Source of the DNA: a virus
Taxonomy: Duplodnaviria; Heunggongvirae; Uroviricota; Caudoviricetes
Reading direction: 5' to 3' (one strand)
DNA: 20,648 nt
Virus record (IMG/VR): IMGVR_UViG_2778261382_000002
Each line of letters starts with the position of its first letter. Position 1 is the stretch's first letter. The translations under genes and the position numbers were made by a program. A model generated the notes under the pieces. It did no database searches, was not told the DNA's origin, and saw only the letters and a list, made by a program, of their open reading frames with translations. This document shows, one piece after another, positions 1-14,619 of the stretch.

Positions 1-549
1 ATGCAATTTAATATCCCTACGTTGCTTACACTGTTCCGTGTCATCCTTATCCCATTCTTTGTATTGGTCTTTTATTTGCCTGTCACCTGGTCGCCGTTTG
101 CCGCCGCGCTCATTTTCTGCGTCGCGGCGGTGACTGACTGGTTCGATGGTTTTCTGGCACGCCGCTGGAATCAGAGTACCCGGTTTGGTGCTTTCCTTGA
201 CCCTGTCGCAGATAAAGTTCTCGTGGCTATCGCCATGGTGCTGGTAACCGAGCATTACCACAGCTGGTGGGTGACCTTACCGGCAGCAACGATGATCGCC
301 CGTGAAATTATTATTTCTGCGCTACGCGAATGGATGGCGGAGTTGGGTAAACGCAGTAGCGTGGCTGTCTCCTGGATTGGGAAAGTGAAAACCACTGCCC
401 AGATGGTGGCGTTAGCCTGGCTGCTGTGGCGTCCGAACATTTGGGTTGAGTACGCCGGTATTGCACTTTTCTTTGTGGCTGCGGTACTGACTCTGTGGTC
501 AATGTTGCAATATTTGAGCGCTGCGCGTGCAGATTTGCTTGATCAGTGA
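1..549 (+). CDS. pgsA: CDP-diacylglycerol--glycerol-3-phosphate 3-phosphatidyltransferase (phosphatidylglycerophosphate synthase)
   Basis: 182-aa ORF whose translation ([20 protein letters not shown]...[10 protein letters not shown]...FLDPVADK) I recognise as enterobacterial PgsA, with the CDP-alcohol phosphatidyltransferase D-G-x2-A-R...G-x3-D-x3-D motif. The glyW-cysT-leuZ operon directly downstream matches the E. coli locus order. Confidence 0.95.
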
Positions 550-599
550 TCGTTTCGGCGCAATTTTCAGCAAACGATCAAAAGTGGTGAAAAATATCG

Positions 600-627
600 T
601 TGACTCATCGCGCCAGGTAAGTAGAAT
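600..627 (+). promoter_or_regulatory. Sigma70-type promoter of the tRNA operon
   Basis: TTGACT (600-605), 16-bp spacer, TAGAAT (622-627), A/T-rich upstream stretch and a GC-rich discriminator-like stretch downstream, about 75 bp before tRNA-Gly. Sequence inspection only. Confidence 0.45.
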
Positions 628-700
628 GCAACGCATCGAACGGCGGCACTGATTGCCAGACGATAATAAAATCAAGTGATTAACTGATTGCTTGATGAAT

Positions 701-776
<76 letters not shown>

Positions 777-829
777 GTTTAAAAGACATCGGCGGCAGCG
801 GATGTCTGGCTGAAAGGCCTGAAGAATTT

Positions 830-903
830 GGCGCGTTAACAAAGCGGTTATGTAGCGGATTGCAAATCCGTCTAGTCCGGTTCGACTCCGGAACGCGCCT
901 CCA
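830..903 (+). tRNA. cysT: tRNA-Cys (anticodon GCA)
   Basis: 74-nt sequence GGCGCGTTAACAAAGCGGTTATGTAGCGGATTGCAAATCCGTCTAGTCCGGTTCGACTCCGGAACGCGCCTCCA, matching the E. coli tRNA-Cys as I recall it; anticodon loop TTGCAAA. Confidence 0.95.
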
Positions 904-915
904 CTTTCTTCCCGA

Positions 916-1002
916 GCCCGGATGGTGGAATCGGTAGACACAAGGGATTTAAAATCCCTCGGCGTTCGCGCTGTGCGGGTTCAAGTCCCGCTCCGGGTAC
1001 CA
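916..1002 (+). tRNA. leuZ: tRNA-Leu (anticodon TAA), long variable arm
   Basis: 87-nt class II tRNA GCCCGGATGGTGGAATCGGTAGACACAAGGGATTTAAAATCCC...GGGTACCA with TAA anticodon and extended variable arm. Confidence 0.95.
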
Positions 1003-1045
1003 TGGGAAAGATAAGAATAAAATCAAAGCAATAAGCAGTGTCGTG

Positions 1046-1069
1046 AAACCACCTTCGGGTGGTTTTTTT
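1046..1069 (+). terminator. Rho-independent terminator of the tRNA operon
   Basis: Perfect 8-bp stem AAACCACC/GGTGGTTT with TTCG tetraloop, followed by a T7 run. Confidence 0.8.
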
Positions 1070-1161
1070 GTATCTTCTTTTTCATTTCCGAAGATGCGTC
1101 CGAAGATGATTTTTCTCTGGACGCATCATCATTCATTTTCTCTGGCCACCAACTACGGGCA

Positions 1162-1416
1162 CTACTTTAACTTTTCGGTCATATGCTGCTGTCTGTCGTG
1201 GGTTCTTATGCCCGGAAATTGCTTGCTTCTCTTCCAGGCTGCCTTAGGCGTAATCAGTTCTGGTGGGGGGAATGCCGATTTCTCCCGCGTGACCTTAATG
1301 TTTTCTGGCAGGTGTAGCCCAAGTTCGCAGCGGCTCCGTGCTTCAATAATGCCATTGGTACCATCGGCAAGTACCAGGTGAACCGCGTCACCACGCTTTA
1401 ATGTGAGTTTAAGCAT
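1162..1416 (-). CDS. Hypothetical protein (84 aa), translationally coupled to the upstream recombinase-like remnant
   Basis: Its ATG (1416-1414 on the - strand) overlaps the TAA stop of the upstream - strand ORF (TAATG). No family recognised. The overlapping + strand ORF 1043-1381 looks non-protein-like. Confidence 0.35.
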   Translation of the reverse strand: MLKLTLKRGDAVHLVLADGTNGIIEARSRCELGLHLPENIKVTREKSAFPPPELITPKAAWKRSKQFPGIRTHDRQQHMTEKLK

Positions 1417-2172
1417 TAGCGTACCCTCAGCGAACGTTCGCCGCGTTCCAGATGTGCGCCTGGTACCGGGTTAAGTAATTCGGCAGGTGGTGTTTCTCCA
1501 CGCGCCATTATTTCTGCGGCAACCGCCTCCGCAGATTCAATCACTTCTTTAATGGCTCGCTTGTTTGGTGTAATAACCGTTTCTACTTCAACAAGTGACA
1601 CGCCTTCATACTCGTCCGGGATCTTATCTTTGCTATCGATAATTACCCGGATAGCCCCCTGTGCATCAGTAAATGTGTTTTTAGCAGTTTTCAATTTACG
1701 ATGAATATTCTTTATCGCCTTTGGCTTCTGCTGCTTTTCGGTGTACATCCACTTCGCGGGCGATGAGGCCAAATACCTTGTTTACTTCGTTGGTGGTTAC
1801 CGCGGCGGCCAGCGTATTGGCAACGTTGATCAGCTTCTCATCCAGTTCCTTACGAAGACGGGTAGCATCTTCCGCATTCTCGCTGGCATTCTTGATATCA
1901 AACTCAGCTTTATTCCTCTGGCGGTATTCCGGATTGTCGTACAGGCCCATGAAAATATCGGCGCTGAATCCGAGAGGGGATAGCGCTTTCTTAACAGCAT
2001 CCGTCCAGGATTTCTTCGGCGCTTCGCCGTCGCTTGTTGGTCCATGTCTAGTATCGTAGATGTACGGAGTGCAACCGTAAGCCGCAGACTCGCCGCGCAC
2101 CCCATTCAATATGTACCAGACTCTCACTTTCATGGTGTGGTGCATTTCACATAGGTACAGCGTGGCTGAGAT
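1416..2172 (-). pseudogene. Rad52/Sak-like single-strand annealing recombinase, N-terminally truncated and frameshifted
   Basis: ORF 1696-2145 (-) contains KKSWTDAVKKALSPLGFSADIFMGLYD, which resembles the Rad52-family signature (K-E-A-V-T-D-x-L-K-R-A-L...F-G...L-D-K as I recall it). Only about 45 residues precede this motif and an in-frame stop lies at 2173-2175, so the N-terminal half of the domain is missing. The C-terminal part continues in another frame (ORF 1416-1772), overlapping by 77 nt. Confidence 0.5.
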
Positions 2173-2587
2173 TCAGTTAGTAATTCGTTGGGTTATTGCG
2201 ACATGGCGCCGTCGTAGCGGAAGCGTTCCGAAACCTGCGAACATTTGCCGCGTAAACCGGTTTGACGGATACCTGGCTGACGCTGAGACGTGGGCCACTG
2301 CTGAGGCTGCCGTTGACCCTGCTGAAGTTGTGAAGGGCTACAACGAGATTCTGGGCGACCTGCTACCTATAGCTGAAATTGATACTGACCGCCGTCGGGC
2401 AATCCTGCGCCTGCTGGCACATATGCGCACGCAAACTCTTGGCGCATTTATCGGCTACTTCGAAAAATTCCGCGATAACGCCCCAGACTTCTATTTCGGC
2501 GGCGAATATCGCACCGGCTGGCGGGCAGGGTTTGATTACCTGATGAAGCCAGAAACACTGCGTAAAACCAGGGAAGGGGCATTATGA
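2111..2587 (+). CDS. Phage replication initiation protein, C-terminal fragment (probably N-terminally truncated), coupled to the helicase gene
   Basis: The C-terminal roughly 100 aa (AEVVKGYNEILGDLLPIAEIDTDRRRAILRLLAHMRTQ...FGGEYRTGWRAGFDYLM) resemble the conserved C-terminal domain of phage O-like replication proteins that partner DnaB-type helicases. The first roughly 55 codons are W/C/R-rich and look non-coding. Stop overlaps the helicase start (ATGA at 2584-2587). Confidence 0.4.
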   Translation: MYQTLTFMVWCISHRYSVAEIQLVIRWVIATWRRRSGSVPKPANICRVNRFDGYLADAETWATAEAAVDPAEVVKGYNEILGDLLPIAEIDTDRRRAILRLLAHMRTQTLGAFIGYFEKFRDNAPDFYFGGEYRTGWRAGFDYLMKPETLRKTREGAL

Positions 2588-3975
2588 ATCCAGAAGAACT
2601 GGAAGCGATCGTTCTCGCTGGTCTGATTAACGGTGGCGCGACGCCTGACGCGTTTGATGTGATTGCCACTACTCCGGAGGAAGCCTTCAGCATCGTGTTT
2701 CACCGTCGCGCTTTCAGCGAAATCAAAAAGCAGGCACTGGCGAACGGCATGATCGACATGTTGTTTATCAGCGAAGCGCTGGGCGGTTCCAGCCTTGCGG
2801 ATCTGTCTCAAATATCCCGGATCCCGGCAACGGTACCGAATCTGAAAGGCTATGCCGGGAAAATGGTGCGGGCATGGCGGAGCCGCAAAATGGCGGCATT
2901 GTTGCAATCTGGCGCGGATGGTATCCGTAACGCTGTAAACCAGAGTCAGCGTGATGAGGTTATTGAATCTCATGTTGCTCAGGTGCTGGATATGAGCGCC
3001 GCTACCGGCACAGTCCAGCCGGTACACATCAAAGAGCTGTTACCGCTCTACATTGACACCGTTGATAAACGGATGTCTGGCGACGCGCAGGAAATGATGC
3101 TGAAAACCGGAGTCGAGGATCTGGATGTCGCCCTGGGCGGTATCAACATGACCGACCTTGTTGTGGTTGCCGGTCGTCCAGGCATGGGGAAAACGGAATT
3201 TACCCTGAAGATTATCGATGGCGTTACCGCAGATGGCGGCGGCGCACTGTTTTTCAGCATGGAAATGGGCGCTCAGCAGATTGTTGAACGTACCGTTGCC
3301 GGGGCTGGGAATATGTCCACGTCGCGTCTGCGTAATCCAAAAGAAATGGACGATGAGGATTTGACCAGATTAACCGCCGCGCTTGCAATCATGCAGGATC
3401 GCGATATCTGGATTGTTGATGCCACTGATTTGACGATTGAGCAGATCCGCGCCATTGCAGAGACTCATAAACGCCGTTATCCGCACCTGAAGTTGATTGG
3501 TGTTGATTACATGGGCCTGATCAAAAAACCGAAGGCCGAGCGCCACGATCTCGCTGTCGGGCATATCTCCCGCAACATGAAGACTATGGCCATGCGTCTG
3601 CATACCCCTGTTTTTGCTCTTAGCCAGCTTTCCCGCCAGGTGGATTCTCGACCTGCTGGCCAGCGTCGCCCGGTGATGTCGGACCTGCGCGATTCCGGCA
3701 GTGTTGAGCAGGACGCTGACAGCATTTTGTTTTTGTACCGCGATGAAGTTTACACACCTGATTCACCTGCAAAGGGTATCGCCGAGGTGATTATCGGTAA
3801 AAACCGTTCTGGCGGGGCAGGTGAAATTATTTATCAGGAATTCCGGAATGGGCATTTCCTGCCAGTTGATCAACACGTAGCACGCGAAAAATTACGCATC
3901 CAGAAGGAGGCAGAGCAACCGAGAAAACGTGAAAAACGGTATTCAAACAAAAACTTTAATACGGACCCATTTTAA
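2584..3975 (+). CDS. Replicative DNA helicase, DnaB family (phage-encoded)
   Basis: 463 aa with Walker A GRPGMGKT, DnaB-like N-terminal domain and C-terminal RecA-like core motifs (FFSMEM, LSQLSR, SDLRDSGSVEQDAD). Size and motif spacing are typical of DnaB. Confidence 0.9.
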   Translation: MNPEELEAIVLAGLINGGATPDAFDVIATTPEEAFSIVFHRRAFSEIKKQALANGMIDMLFISEALGGSSLADLSQISRIPATVPNLKGYAGKMVRAWRSRKMAALLQSGADGIRNAVNQSQRDEVIESHVAQVLDMSAATGTVQPVHIKELLPLYIDTVDKRMSGDAQEMMLKTGVEDLDVALGGINMTDLVVVAGRPGMGKTEFTLKIIDGVTADGGGALFFSMEMGAQQIVERTVAGAGNMSTSRLRNPKEMDDEDLTRLTAALAIMQDRDIWIVDATDLTIEQIRAIAETHKRRYPHLKLIGVDYMGLIKKPKAERHDLAVGHISRNMKTMAMRLHTPVFALSQLSRQVDSRPAGQRRPVMSDLRDSGSVEQDADSILFLYRDEVYTPDSPAKGIAEVIIGKNRSGGAGEIIYQEFRNGHFLPVDQHVAREKLRIQKEAEQPRKREKRYSNKNFNTDPF

Positions 3976-4013
3976 CCACGCATGACCAGCGTGAAATAAC
4001 CGAGGAAAGACCA

Positions 4014-4424
4014 ATGACCACCATTTCAGGCAAATTAGAGTACCCGTCGGACAAAGGACACATAGACGACGGTAAAAACTATCTCGACGTCATTTTGTGG
4101 AATATGAACGCCGGGCCACGTGCGCGCACTCGTGCGGTTTTTGTACCAAGACCCAAAGCAGGCAATTTTTCAACACCAGCTCAGCCTGCCCGTCAGGCAT
4201 CCGTAGCCGCAGCGCCAGCAGTGAAATGTAAGGGTAAAACGCACATCGGGATCGCGATTCGCAGAAATGGTGAGCGGCAAGTGAAACTCCACGAAACAGC
4301 GACAACCTGGTGTGCCTCACCGCATGAAACTTACGACAAGATAACCGGACAGCGCATTGGCGCGCCCGGTCGCTGTCGCCTGCTGCTGAGTTCCATCACT
4401 CCGATAGCAAAGAAAGGGACGTGA
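4014..4424 (+). CDS. Hypothetical phage protein (136 aa)
   Basis: ORF preceded by GAGGAAAG Shine-Dalgarno; first gene of a tightly packed small-gene operon. Pro/Ala-rich middle and three Cys; no family recognised. Confidence 0.45.
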   Translation: MTTISGKLEYPSDKGHIDDGKNYLDVILWNMNAGPRARTRAVFVPRPKAGNFSTPAQPARQASVAAAPAVKCKGKTHIGIAIRRNGERQVKLHETATTWCASPHETYDKITGQRIGAPGRCRLLLSSITPIAKKGT

Positions 4425-4425
4425 T

Positions 4426-4662
4426 ATGGCAGGGCAATCAGATTACCTGCCGCCCGGCTTACCACACAACCGCGCCAAATGGCCTCAGGAATACCTGCTT
4501 AAAGAGCACTACGACATGCGAGCGGCGACGCTGATCCGCCAACTCTTTGAGAAACGTATTCCGAGGGGAAGCGTGATTGAGCAAATCGGAATGACGCCGG
4601 ATACGTACCGGGAATTTTTCAGAGAGCGTCTGAACTACTGGAGAGGGGGGATGGAGCAATGA
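4426..4662 (+). CDS. Hypothetical phage protein (78 aa)
   Basis: Starts 2 nt after the previous stop; its stop overlaps the next start (ATGA). No family recognised. Confidence 0.45.
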   Translation: MAGQSDYLPPGLPHNRAKWPQEYLLKEHYDMRAATLIRQLFEKRIPRGSVIEQIGMTPDTYREFFRERLNYWRGGMEQ

Positions 4663-4970
4663 AATACAAACGGTGGGTGCGTGCGGAAGTCGTAATCATC
4701 AAACAATGTGCGGGCAGCATGATAGTTGAACGTATAGGGCAGCTTATTGGAAGAACCGGTGCTGCGGTACGCACAAAAGCGCGCGAGTTGAAAATCTGTA
4801 TGTATCTGCGGGGTAATTATCACCAGTCAGTGAAATACCGCCAGGAGGATATCGAGCTGGCAAGGGAATTACATCAGTCGGGTATTAATCGCCAGGATAT
4901 CGCGGAAAAACTCGAAATGTCGATCGGTGCGGTGAATCAGTATGTTTATTTTGAGCGGAGGATTTCATGA
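4659..4970 (+). CDS. Hypothetical protein with two helix-turn-helix-like segments (103 aa); possible DNA-binding regulator or small-terminase-like remnant
   Basis: SMIVERIGQLIGRTGAAVRTKAREL and INRQDIAEKLEMSIGAVNQYV both have HTH-like character. Translationally coupled on both sides. Confidence 0.45.
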   Translation: MKYKRWVRAEVVIIKQCAGSMIVERIGQLIGRTGAAVRTKARELKICMYLRGNYHQSVKYRQEDIELARELHQSGINRQDIAEKLEMSIGAVNQYVYFERRIS

Positions 4971-5191
4971 AAGAACTTTTTCTGGCATTTGTGCCCCGGT
5001 TTATTAATGACCAGATCGCACTGACTGATAATGGTGAACAATATGAAATTGCCTGCAGCATGGTGGATGTGAATCCTGGCGAACGGTATGACGCGATGTG
5101 TGACCTGAAAATATTTACCTGGCTGGGTTGGGCTATTCCGTGTGGAGAACCAACCAATATTCGCCCATTTGAGAGCAGGGAGGCTGTATGA
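4967..5191 (+). CDS. Hypothetical phage protein (74 aa)
   Basis: ATGA-coupled to the upstream gene; no transmembrane or enzymatic motif recognised. Confidence 0.4.
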   Translation: MKELFLAFVPRFINDQIALTDNGEQYEIACSMVDVNPGERYDAMCDLKIFTWLGWAIPCGEPTNIRPFESREAV

Positions 5192-5304
5192 GTGAGTTGA
5201 AAATACGTCGCAAGGCAATAGCACACGTTAAAAATCCATTACCAGTGCCCGCCGAATGCCATTTTTGTGGTGGGAATGTACGGATTGGTACGTATGTATG
5301 GTGA
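5188..5304 (+). CDS. Small hypothetical protein (38 aa) with one CxxC motif
   Basis: Not in the supplied ORF track (below 60 aa). ATG at 5188 overlaps the upstream stop (ATGA) and is preceded by GGGAGG 4 nt upstream. Product MSELKIRRKAIAHVKNPLPVPAECHFCGGNVRIGTYVW. Confidence 0.3.
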   Translation: MSELKIRRKAIAHVKNPLPVPAECHFCGGNVRIGTYVW

Positions 5305-5378
5305 TTGCGGAGTGACGTAAAACGAATCGTTGTGGGTGTAATATCGTCAATATCATTGGTTTCCCGGAGGGAAAGGAC

Positions 5379-5528
5379 ATGTTTGGCGATAAACTGGAGT
5401 TACCACGGAACGGGCGGATAGTGCTCTATATTTCAGATTACAAAGTAACCAGGGCTGAGGTGTTGGAACCGGAAAAACATCTGGTCACGTTACCGGACAT
5501 TATTGAGTTGTATAAGCGGGTCGGATAA
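5379..5528 (+). CDS. Small hypothetical protein (49 aa)
   Basis: Not in the supplied ORF track. Strong SD (GGAGGGAAAGGA) immediately upstream of ATG 5379. Product MFGDKLELPRNGRIVLYISDYKVTRAEVLEPEKHLVTLPDIIELYKRVG. Could alternatively be a remnant of a deleted upstream gene. Confidence 0.3.
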   Translation: MFGDKLELPRNGRIVLYISDYKVTRAEVLEPEKHLVTLPDIIELYKRVG

Positions 5529-13125: not shown

Positions 13126-14329
13126 ATTAAAATCAAATCTGAAAGCGAGCGCGAGCCAGGTTTATGCGGTACTGACAGACCGGGGGGCGCAACTTGAAGC
13201 CGCTGCGCTGGCATCGGGTGTACCCGTGGTGCTGAATAAATTCGTTATTGGCGACGCAAACGGAAACGACGACGTAACACCGGACCCGGCACGAACTGCA
13301 TTAATTCACGAGACGTATCGTGGGGATATTAAATCCGCAGAAAATAGCGGTAACCAGGTTATCTTTACACTTTACGTACCGCCAGACACTGGGGGCTATA
13401 CTATCCGTGAGGTGGGGATATTAACAGATAAAGGCGAGCTGTACTCTGTGGCGCGCTCGCCGGACATTTTAAAACCTACGGACAGCAACGGTGCGCTGAT
13501 TTCAATCACGTATAAATACACACTCGCGGTGTCCAGCACATCTACGGTTAATGTTGTAGTATATGACAACTACGTAACTCCCGAGGAAGCTGACAAAAAA
13601 TATTTGCAGATAAGTAAAAACTTATCTGAAATTCCCGCAAATGGTGAAACTGCTCAGCAGGCTGCGCGGAAAAATATTGGTATAGATGGGGACGTTGCAT
13701 ATAGAGATAAGGGTAATGCATTTACTCATCCAAATACTTTTAAAGATGATGTGATTTTTGAAGACGTTTTATCCTCTAAAAAACAAATAAATATAAACAA
13801 ACCGGGCACTGATTTGACGTTGTTTTCACTTGCTGGTTTATCAGATGTGTCGGGCGATTATTTAGATTTTTCGACCCGTGGAGAAAACAATCAGAAGGTT
13901 TTTTATAGATTACGCGGAGTTCACTATGATGGCCTGGTATTACTGTGTGGCGGAATGACGTATAAATACTGGAATGAGGCTAATCTTAAACCGGTTAAAA
14001 CGATTAACGGGGAGTCGCCGGATGAAAATGGCAACATAGATATAAGTCTTTCACCGGACCCATCACCGGAAATAGGTGTTGTTGGCGCGGTTAATACTTA
14101 TGCGCTTGTCGCTATTAATCATGCACCACAAATACTACCGGGCTCCATATGGGCTGGAGGTGATTTATATTACGCTAGTATAAATAATACCGGTTCATAT
14201 AACACGGATATTGCCACAAAACCATTTTATGACACACCCCTTGTTGGCTCATGGCGAGCTATGGCGTATTCACCAGGCGGGGTCGGTGATATTGGGACTG
14301 CCTGTTTTTTAGCTATTAGGATTGCGTAA
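13118..14329 (+). CDS. Tail fiber protein (P2 gpH-like N-terminal domain, divergent A+T-rich C-terminal receptor-binding region)
   Basis: N-terminal roughly 150 aa (VIGDANGNDDVTPDPARTALIHETYRGDI...YVPPDTGGYTIREVGILTDKGELYSVA) parallel the P2 gpH N-terminus. The C-terminal roughly 250 aa are unrelated and visibly more A+T-rich. Confidence 0.85.
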   Translation: MAKLKSNLKASASQVYAVLTDRGAQLEAAALASGVPVVLNKFVIGDANGNDDVTPDPARTALIHETYRGDIKSAENSGNQVIFTLYVPPDTGGYTIREVGILTDKGELYSVARSPDILKPTDSNGALISITYKYTLAVSSTSTVNVVVYDNYVTPEEADKKYLQISKNLSEIPANGETAQQAARKNIGIDGDVAYRDKGNAFTHPNTFKDDVIFEDVLSSKKQININKPGTDLTLFSLAGLSDVSGDYLDFSTRGENNQKVFYRLRGVHYDGLVLLCGGMTYKYWNEANLKPVKTINGESPDENGNIDISLSPDPSPEIGVVGAVNTYALVAINHAPQILPGSIWAGGDLYYASINNTGSYNTDIATKPFYDTPLVGSWRAMAYSPGGVGDIGTACFLAIRIA

Positions 14330-14619
14330 TGATAAGTGTTGATTCATTTAGAAAAATAACAAACCCTGTTTTTAATGACGAGCATGGGTTATCTATAAAT
14401 ATTATTTGCGATATTGACGGGATTGGAAACGACATTCCATTCACCGCAATGAAAAATGATTGCGAGGAACACGGTAGGGTTTTATATGAAAGAGCGCTGA
14501 GCGGGGATTATGGGAGCATTTCTAAATTTGTAAAAAAGAGCAGACGCAAAAACTCCAGACTACATTACGGACTGTTGGCGATCTGTCAATTGAGGCATTC
14601 TCAATTCAGTGTGCAGTAG
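14329..14619 (+). CDS. Putative tail fiber assembly chaperone (possibly frameshifted; continuation 14526-14717 in another frame)
   Basis: TAATG-coupled to the fiber gene, in the expected Tfa position. A second frame open from 14526 to the TGA at 14715-14717 encodes ...SIQCAVDAGTASDAQIENLAELKEAIATRIGENREGIK, which resembles Tfa C-terminal motifs; the frames meet at an A6 tract (14532-14537). Confidence 0.45.
   Translation: MISVDSFRKITNPVFNDEHGLSINIICDIDGIGNDIPFTAMKNDCEEHGRVLYERALSGDYGSISKFVKKSRRKNSRLHYGLLAICQLRHSQFSVQ

Follow-up and report, generated by a model that had tools for sequence, protein, structure and literature searches.

The prophage at tRNA-Leu

The window, by which the whole 20,648-nt stretch of DNA analysed here is meant, starts with the host gene pgsA, which is followed by the genes of tRNA-Gly, tRNA-Cys and tRNA-Leu, and an Rfam scan of the window returned these three tRNAs only. 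Prophage DNA begins directly after tRNA-Leu, and a terminator-like hairpin is located at 1045-1066, after the tRNA operon. The prophage start carries short leftward ORFs at 1162-2145 on the minus strand, followed by a rightward 158-aa ORF, a helicase gene and four small genes, and then by a head and contractile-tail module that runs from 5547 to the window end (Table 1). The organisation is lambdoid, with lambda-like head genes and contractile tail genes, and the integration site is tRNA-Leu (leuZ), flanked by pgsA on the window side and by yecA beyond the window.

As a reference, an intact relative at the same chromosomal site was used (NZ_CP098214.1, locus L003, to which all L003 coordinates refer). 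The window contains one copy of a 125-bp att repeat, in which the 3′ 56 nt of tRNA-Leu are followed by 69 bp, and the identical repeat forms attR of the intact relative; together with the start at tRNA-Leu, this identifies the element as phage-derived DNA at a bacterial attachment site. The last 72 bp of the repeat also match several unrelated deposited phages at 100% (Escherichia phage 520873, vB_EcoM-569R10 and others), and over the window's early region this 72-bp att segment was the only match to phage records. Strain CEA601S carries a second element, equipped with an integrase of its own, in tandem at the tRNA-Leu att site.

Table 1. Positions of the integration site, gene remnants, deletion junctions and intact helicase gene in the window, as compared with the intact relative (L003).
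Feature	Position	Strand	Description
tRNA-Leu (taa), integration site	916..1002	+	ARAGORN, Rfam
attL copy of the 125-bp att repeat	947-1071		100% identical to L003 45506-45630, attR of the intact relative
Integrase remnant	1133..1245	-	last ~37 codons of a 338-aa tyrosine recombinase; PGAP pseudogene in identical genomes
Deletion 1 junction	1244-1245		1,357 bp lost, microhomology TT; takes away the bulk of the integrase gene, the DUF4224 gene and the final codons of a 60-aa gene
Siphovirus Gp157-family remnant	1416..1698	-	C-terminal 94/189 residues; PF05565 profile positions 94-149 only
Deletion 2 junction	1697-1698		370 bp lost, microhomology TA
Internal fragment of the 738-aa protein	1699..2157	-	residues 558-710; 153/153 identical residues
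Chimeric ORF, 158 aa	2111..2587	+	codons 1-15 (2111-2155) antisense of the Rad52-like remnant; codons 16-158 (2156-2587) initiator residues 212-354
Deletion 3 junction (the scar of the earlier note)	2156-2158		5,085 bp lost, microhomology TAC
DnaB-like replicative helicase, intact	2584..3975	+	Pfam DnaB_C (2e-69) plus DnaB N-terminal domain
Deletion 4 junction	5524-5527		16,535 bp lost, microhomology GATA

Four junctions mapped against the intact relative

Alignment of the window to L003 by blastn yielded six collinear blocks of 99.9-100% identity with four gaps between them. The exact junctions were fixed by base-by-base extension, and the content of each gap was taken from the RefSeq annotation of the intact relative. 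The four deletions sum to 23,347 bp (23.3 kb) and the microhomologies measure 2, 2, 3 and 4 bp in window order. No IS sequence or long repeat was found at any of the four junctions, and IS-mediated deletion was rejected for want of an IS sequence at the joins.

At the left end, window 1-1245 corresponds to L003 904-2148 and window 1244-1698 to L003 3504-3958, and the integrase CDS of the relative extends over L003 2036-3052. Deletion 2 removed the N-terminus of the Gp157-family protein and the last 28 codons of a gene for a 738-aa protein, and created a TAA stop at 1696-1698. Deletion 4 removed accessory genes, Q, the holin and lysis genes, terminase, gpW and portal, so that the S49 protease gene (5547) directly follows early-region DNA.

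Deletion 3 lies where the earlier note had suspected a scar. To its left, window 1697-2158 equals L003 4327-4788, and to its right, window 2156-5527 equals L003 9871-13241, both at 100%. Both parental sites contain the trinucleotide TAC, their flanking 25 bp show no other relation and no DNA was inserted, which is the pattern of a microhomology-mediated deletion, with few shared bases and no long repeat, IS or site-specific site. The 5,085-bp gap contains 557 N-terminal codons of the 738-aa gene, a 106-aa gene, a HTH repressor gene and cro (in divergent orientation), ydaT, a 74-aa gene and 211 codons of a replication initiator gene, as well as about 950 bp with no annotated gene. The suggestion that a deletion had fused two operons at the cost of the immunity and early control region is thus supported by this gap, and the absence of repressor and cro between the leftward and rightward genes was confirmed. 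Deletion 3 joined the leftward recombination gene to the rightward initiator gene, each of them broken in its middle, and, with repressor and cro, took away the intergenic region where early promoters would be expected. A single event cost the element its switch, the N-terminal half of the initiator and its probable origin.

The in-frame stop that had been noticed in the minus-strand Rad52-like ORF was also verified: a TGA (tca on the plus strand) is located at 2173-2175, upstream of the minus-strand ORF 1696-2145 and in its frame (2173-1696 = 477 = 3 x 159). The stop falls past the join, where the minus strand reads the antisense of the initiator gene, and it thus arose through the fusion and does not represent a point mutation.

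In the genomes identical to the window across 1000-4500, PGAP annotates four consecutive pseudogenes, namely an integrase without N-terminus, a Gp157-family protein without N-terminus, a hypothetical protein without both termini and a RepO without N-terminus; the fragments are therefore already marked as pseudogenes in RefSeq. Compared with the intact relative, the retained sequence shows just 12 differences in ~20.6 kb, all of them substitutions or single-base indels. One difference is a 1-bp deletion at 14532 (ORF 14329-14619), just downstream of the tail-fibre gene, which shortens a 129-aa ORF to 96 aa and is a further sign of ongoing decay in an otherwise intact tail module. The small number of differences, together with this truncating deletion, indicates that the decay is recent and still going on.

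The intact relative has lesions of its own: Q contains an internal stop, an IS1 copy is inserted, and 198 bp are deleted from the S49 protease gene. It is therefore used as a structural reference and not as a proven viable phage. Tandem Repeats Finder detected no repeat that accounts for the 198-bp length difference in the S49 protease gene. When the relative's early region was compared with 50,697 phage records by megablast, no close phage was found, and only short matches of 72-78% were obtained.

The recombination and initiator gene remnants

Pfam and NCBIfam scans were unhelpful for both gene fragments at the scar, and their identities came from PHROGs and from comparison with the intact relative. 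Aligned to intact homologues, as had been proposed earlier, both fragments proved to be partial, covering residues 558-710 of 738 and 212-354 of 354, respectively, and neither product aligned to an intact homologue over its full length.

The left remnant belongs to the 738-aa protein, whose intact gene occupies L003 4242-6458 in the relative, and it is clipped at both ends, by deletion 3 and, at residue 710, by deletion 2. The earlier note had described a truncated Rad52-like gene with too little N-terminal sequence for a full annealing domain; the incompleteness of the domain holds, and the second cut at 1697-1698 and the 738-aa parent protein had been missed. The C-terminal domain of the parent protein is predicted to be a Rad52-like annealing domain, and this label stands for the domain family. 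Supporting this assignment, PF04098 (Rad52_Rad22) is matched by 14 of the 21 aligned family members (best 9.3e-7), the top five PDB entries for the alignment profile are all human RAD52 N-terminal domain entries, though weak (E about 0.4), and the beta-beta-beta-alpha core of the Rad52 fold was found in the domain. The intact domain itself scores below the PF04098 cut-off (E 0.055, 13.8 bits vs 20.3), the 738-aa protein as a single sequence gave noise only against PDB sequences, and the window fragment had no Pfam match at E <= 0.01. Of the Rad52-like domain, just the C-terminal half survives in the window copy; alignment to the model shows strands one and two, the first helix and the first long strand to be missing, so that no complete domain is present.

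Homology searches with the fragment recovered stand-alone proteins of ~240 aa that align with residues ~470-738 of the 738-aa protein. Single-strand annealing proteins of the Rad52/Sak type (PF04098) include human RAD52, Mgm101 and Sak of phage 80alpha; unlike these, the domain of this prophage family is fused behind a region of ~470 residues that is in part RecE-middle-like, its intact form falls short of the Pfam threshold, and the window copy is a half domain. In PHROGs, the 738-aa protein belongs to phrog_2489, labelled 'exonuclease', and elsewhere it is annotated as 'hypothetical', 'exonuclease' or 'phage-associated endonuclease'. Its residues 231-336 resemble the non-nuclease middle of RecE (NF007259 positions 260-370), and the phrog_2489 label appears to rest on this similarity. 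No nuclease domain was detectable in the 738-aa protein, and the 'exonuclease' label may be an annotation artefact.

The right remnant forms most of the plus-strand 158-aa ORF, which overlaps the recombinase remnant, as had been noted, over 2111-2157 and in which the fusion is in frame. By BLASTP, residues 16-158 are identical to the intact 354-aa initiator at 143 of 143 positions. The N-terminal part of the product had been judged implausible; this applies to residues 1-15, which are non-native, whereas the W/R-rich stretch belongs to the native 143 residues, and VIRWVIATWRRRSGS in this ORF is genuinely coding. The view that the product is protein-like in its last third only was consequently wrong in detail. 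PHROG matches of the ORF were phrog_428, phrog_345 and phrog_1347, and PGAP named it 'replication protein RepO, missing N-terminus'. The intact initiator matches phrog_428 at 5e-73, and also phrog_345, 678 and 9773 ('O-like'), while the window fragment matches phrog_428 at 2e-32 and over profile positions 264-391 only; in Pfam or NCBIfam the initiator had no match. By family similarity, the right-hand gene is classed as a lambda-O-like replication initiator. An exact-protein look-up of the 158-aa product returned one 1.8-kb Logan contig, which is uninformative on distribution.

In the intact relative, four iterons, GGTCAAKKTGACCCA (GGTCAA-NN-TGACCCA), are located at L003 9592-9674 with 22-23-bp spacing, followed by an AT-rich stretch. 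They sit inside the initiator gene, wholly in the deleted part, and are probably the phage origin, as predicted from their arrangement. A search of the window for the motif found nothing, even when up to 2 mismatches were tolerated, and the window thus lacks both the iterons and the N-terminal DNA-binding half of the initiator (residues 1-211), which are present in the relative.

The helicase encoded downstream (WP_021560865.1) is the same protein as in the intact relative, and it is left without its upstream operon and origin and with no recognisable promoter. In a crude consensus scan of 900-4100, 0 sigma-70-like promoters were found vs 3.1 expected, a count to be read with the caveat that weak or other-sigma promoters could still drive the helicase. 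The remaining helicase and structural genes are stranded and probably silent.

Distribution, origin and consequences of the deletions

Megablast searches against 5,426 complete E. coli genomes located the scar join in five of them. Two genomes, CEA601S (France) and AHB18 (OZ546938, UK), were identical to the window across 1000-4500, and many others matched only from 2156 on. The junctions of deletions 1, 2 and 3 are carried by the same five genomes, which are these two and 19AR1724 (New Zealand), 23AR1217 and 24AR0180; a single-piece match spanning the deletion 2 junction was likewise obtained in 5 genomes only, and none of the 5,426 complete E. coli genomes carried a subset of deletions 1-3. 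The deletion 4 junction was found in two genomes. About 442 complete genomes carry the undeleted recombination module vs the five with the scar, and the polarity of the change is therefore deletion. In addition to scars 1-3, 19AR1724 shows a larger deletion that extends from the helicase N-terminal domain as far as baseplate gene V (L004 13510-13830), so that only the baseplate-to-tail segment remains. The matches of 23AR1217 and 24AR0180 end at the window position where that of 19AR1724 also ends, and judged by this these two strains probably share its larger deletion.

We therefore regard the scar as the exact join of a 5,085-bp deletion in a lambdoid-organised E. coli prophage, with a probability of about 0.93. 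Genomes of lambdoid phages are mosaics in which modules often meet abruptly, and the abutment might on this ground be taken for a mosaic joint between two phages; but a single relative matches both flanks at 100%, with order and orientation unchanged, and both genes are cut internally. Neither is the scar an assembly artefact, because five complete genomes, assembled independently and originating from France, the UK and New Zealand, share the identical join. Both explanations were rejected, and their combined probability is negligible.

Because only 3 bp are shared at the scar and no insertion sequence or long repeat is present, the most likely mechanism would be RecA-independent illegitimate recombination, either by replication slippage or by microhomology-assisted end joining. 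A random join has microhomology of at least 3 bp with a probability of about 0.05, and the scar taken alone is thus weakly above chance; the summed microhomology of 11 bp over the four junctions has a chance probability of about 0.0016. As a set, the four junctions point to microhomology-assisted illegitimate recombination, of which the scar alone is no proof.

One aspect alone is mildly unusual: the four microhomology deletions occur together, with no intermediates. They could go back to one catastrophic event, in which several double-strand breaks, arising in an abortive induction or from self-targeting, were repaired by microhomology-assisted end joining, and such an event would fit deletions 1, 2 and 3 always being together in the same five of the 5,426 genomes with no subset, the few differences of the retained DNA from the relative, and short microhomology at all four junctions with the low joint chance given above. 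However, the five genomes, which are maybe one clone, cannot order the events, intermediates may exist in draft assemblies since the count covers complete genomes, and the identical picture would result from successive deletions if selection against a dangerous prophage were strong. Moreover, the further and different deletion of the sister strains, from the helicase to baseplate gene V, indicates that stepwise loss occurs in this lineage. We consider a single multi-break event unlikely and leave it a small chance. The more specific proposal, in which the four co-occurring junctions in barely diverged DNA record one multi-break 'shattering' and rejoining, with abortive induction or defence-system self-targeting as its trigger, is doubtful; if true, shattering would be a natural footprint of end joining on E. 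coli prophages, distinct from slow stepwise decay.

It is highly improbable that the reduced element is a domesticated functional unit, such as a producer of tailocin-like particles or a helper-dependent satellite, with the junction as a selected architecture. The intact helicase gene, the nearly whole head and contractile-tail module, and the retention of the baseplate-to-tail segment in the sister strains despite their larger deletion would agree with such a unit, but at near-100% identity to the relative too little time has passed for intactness to show selection. In addition, no regulator, lysis gene, terminase or portal is left, the 1-bp deletion at 14532 already truncates an ORF, no promoter-like site lies upstream of the helicase, and the junction yields nonsense fusions only.

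Returning to loss by deletion, the functions gone from the element comprise integrase/excisionase, the DUF4224 gene, repressor/cro, the origin iterons, the initiator N-terminus, Q, the lysis genes, terminase, gpW and portal, so that in comparison with the intact relative essential lytic and lysogenic functions are missing and the element classifies as a defective prophage. Because these functions were removed by the four deletions, the element should be unable to excise, switch, replicate, lyse or package, and from its gene content we strongly infer that it is uninducible.

The scar is ordinary, cleanly mapped prophage decay and represents no new system or mechanism. Internal deletion is also how cryptic or defective E. 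coli prophages, for example Rac, DLP12, Qin and e14 of K-12, have been inactivated. Like these, the present element has lost integrase, immunity, replication, lysis and packaging by internal deletions, with stranded intact genes and pseudogene fragments left behind. Unlike them, it has an essentially identical intact relative that allows every breakpoint to be placed to the base, its decay is very recent with almost no point mutations, and among deposited phage genomes nothing is closely related to the early region of its prophage family. In the lambda early region, leftward recombination genes, cI/cro and rightward O-P replication genes follow one another, with ori inside O. The intact relative resembles this arrangement in its leftward recombination genes, divergent HTH repressor and Cro, and rightward initiator gene holding four iterons of ~15 bp and an AT-rich stretch. 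In contrast to lambda, the initiator is followed by a phage-encoded DnaB-like helicase and not by a P-type loader, the recombination gene encodes the 738-aa protein with the Rad52-like C-terminal domain and not Exo/Beta, and the tail is contractile. Inactivation of prophages by deletion is also a theme of published papers, PMC6832061 among them.

The element provides a clean worked example of a recently inactivated prophage, with all breakpoints known to the base against an intact sibling. The functions lost first were excision, immunity plus origin, and lysis plus packaging, and every join carries 2-4 bp of homology. The deletions account for the four RefSeq pseudogenes and for the orphan DnaB-like helicase, and they give warning that the 158-aa chimeric ORF should not be annotated as a gene. 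Two further chimeric ORFs produced by deletion are found on the minus strand: an 84-aa ORF at 1162-1416, in which a 60-aa phrog_2482 protein lacking its last 3 codons and stop runs into the antisense integrase remnant, and a 118-aa ORF at 1416-1772, in which an out-of-frame Rad52-like remnant is joined to the native C-terminal 94 residues of Gp157.
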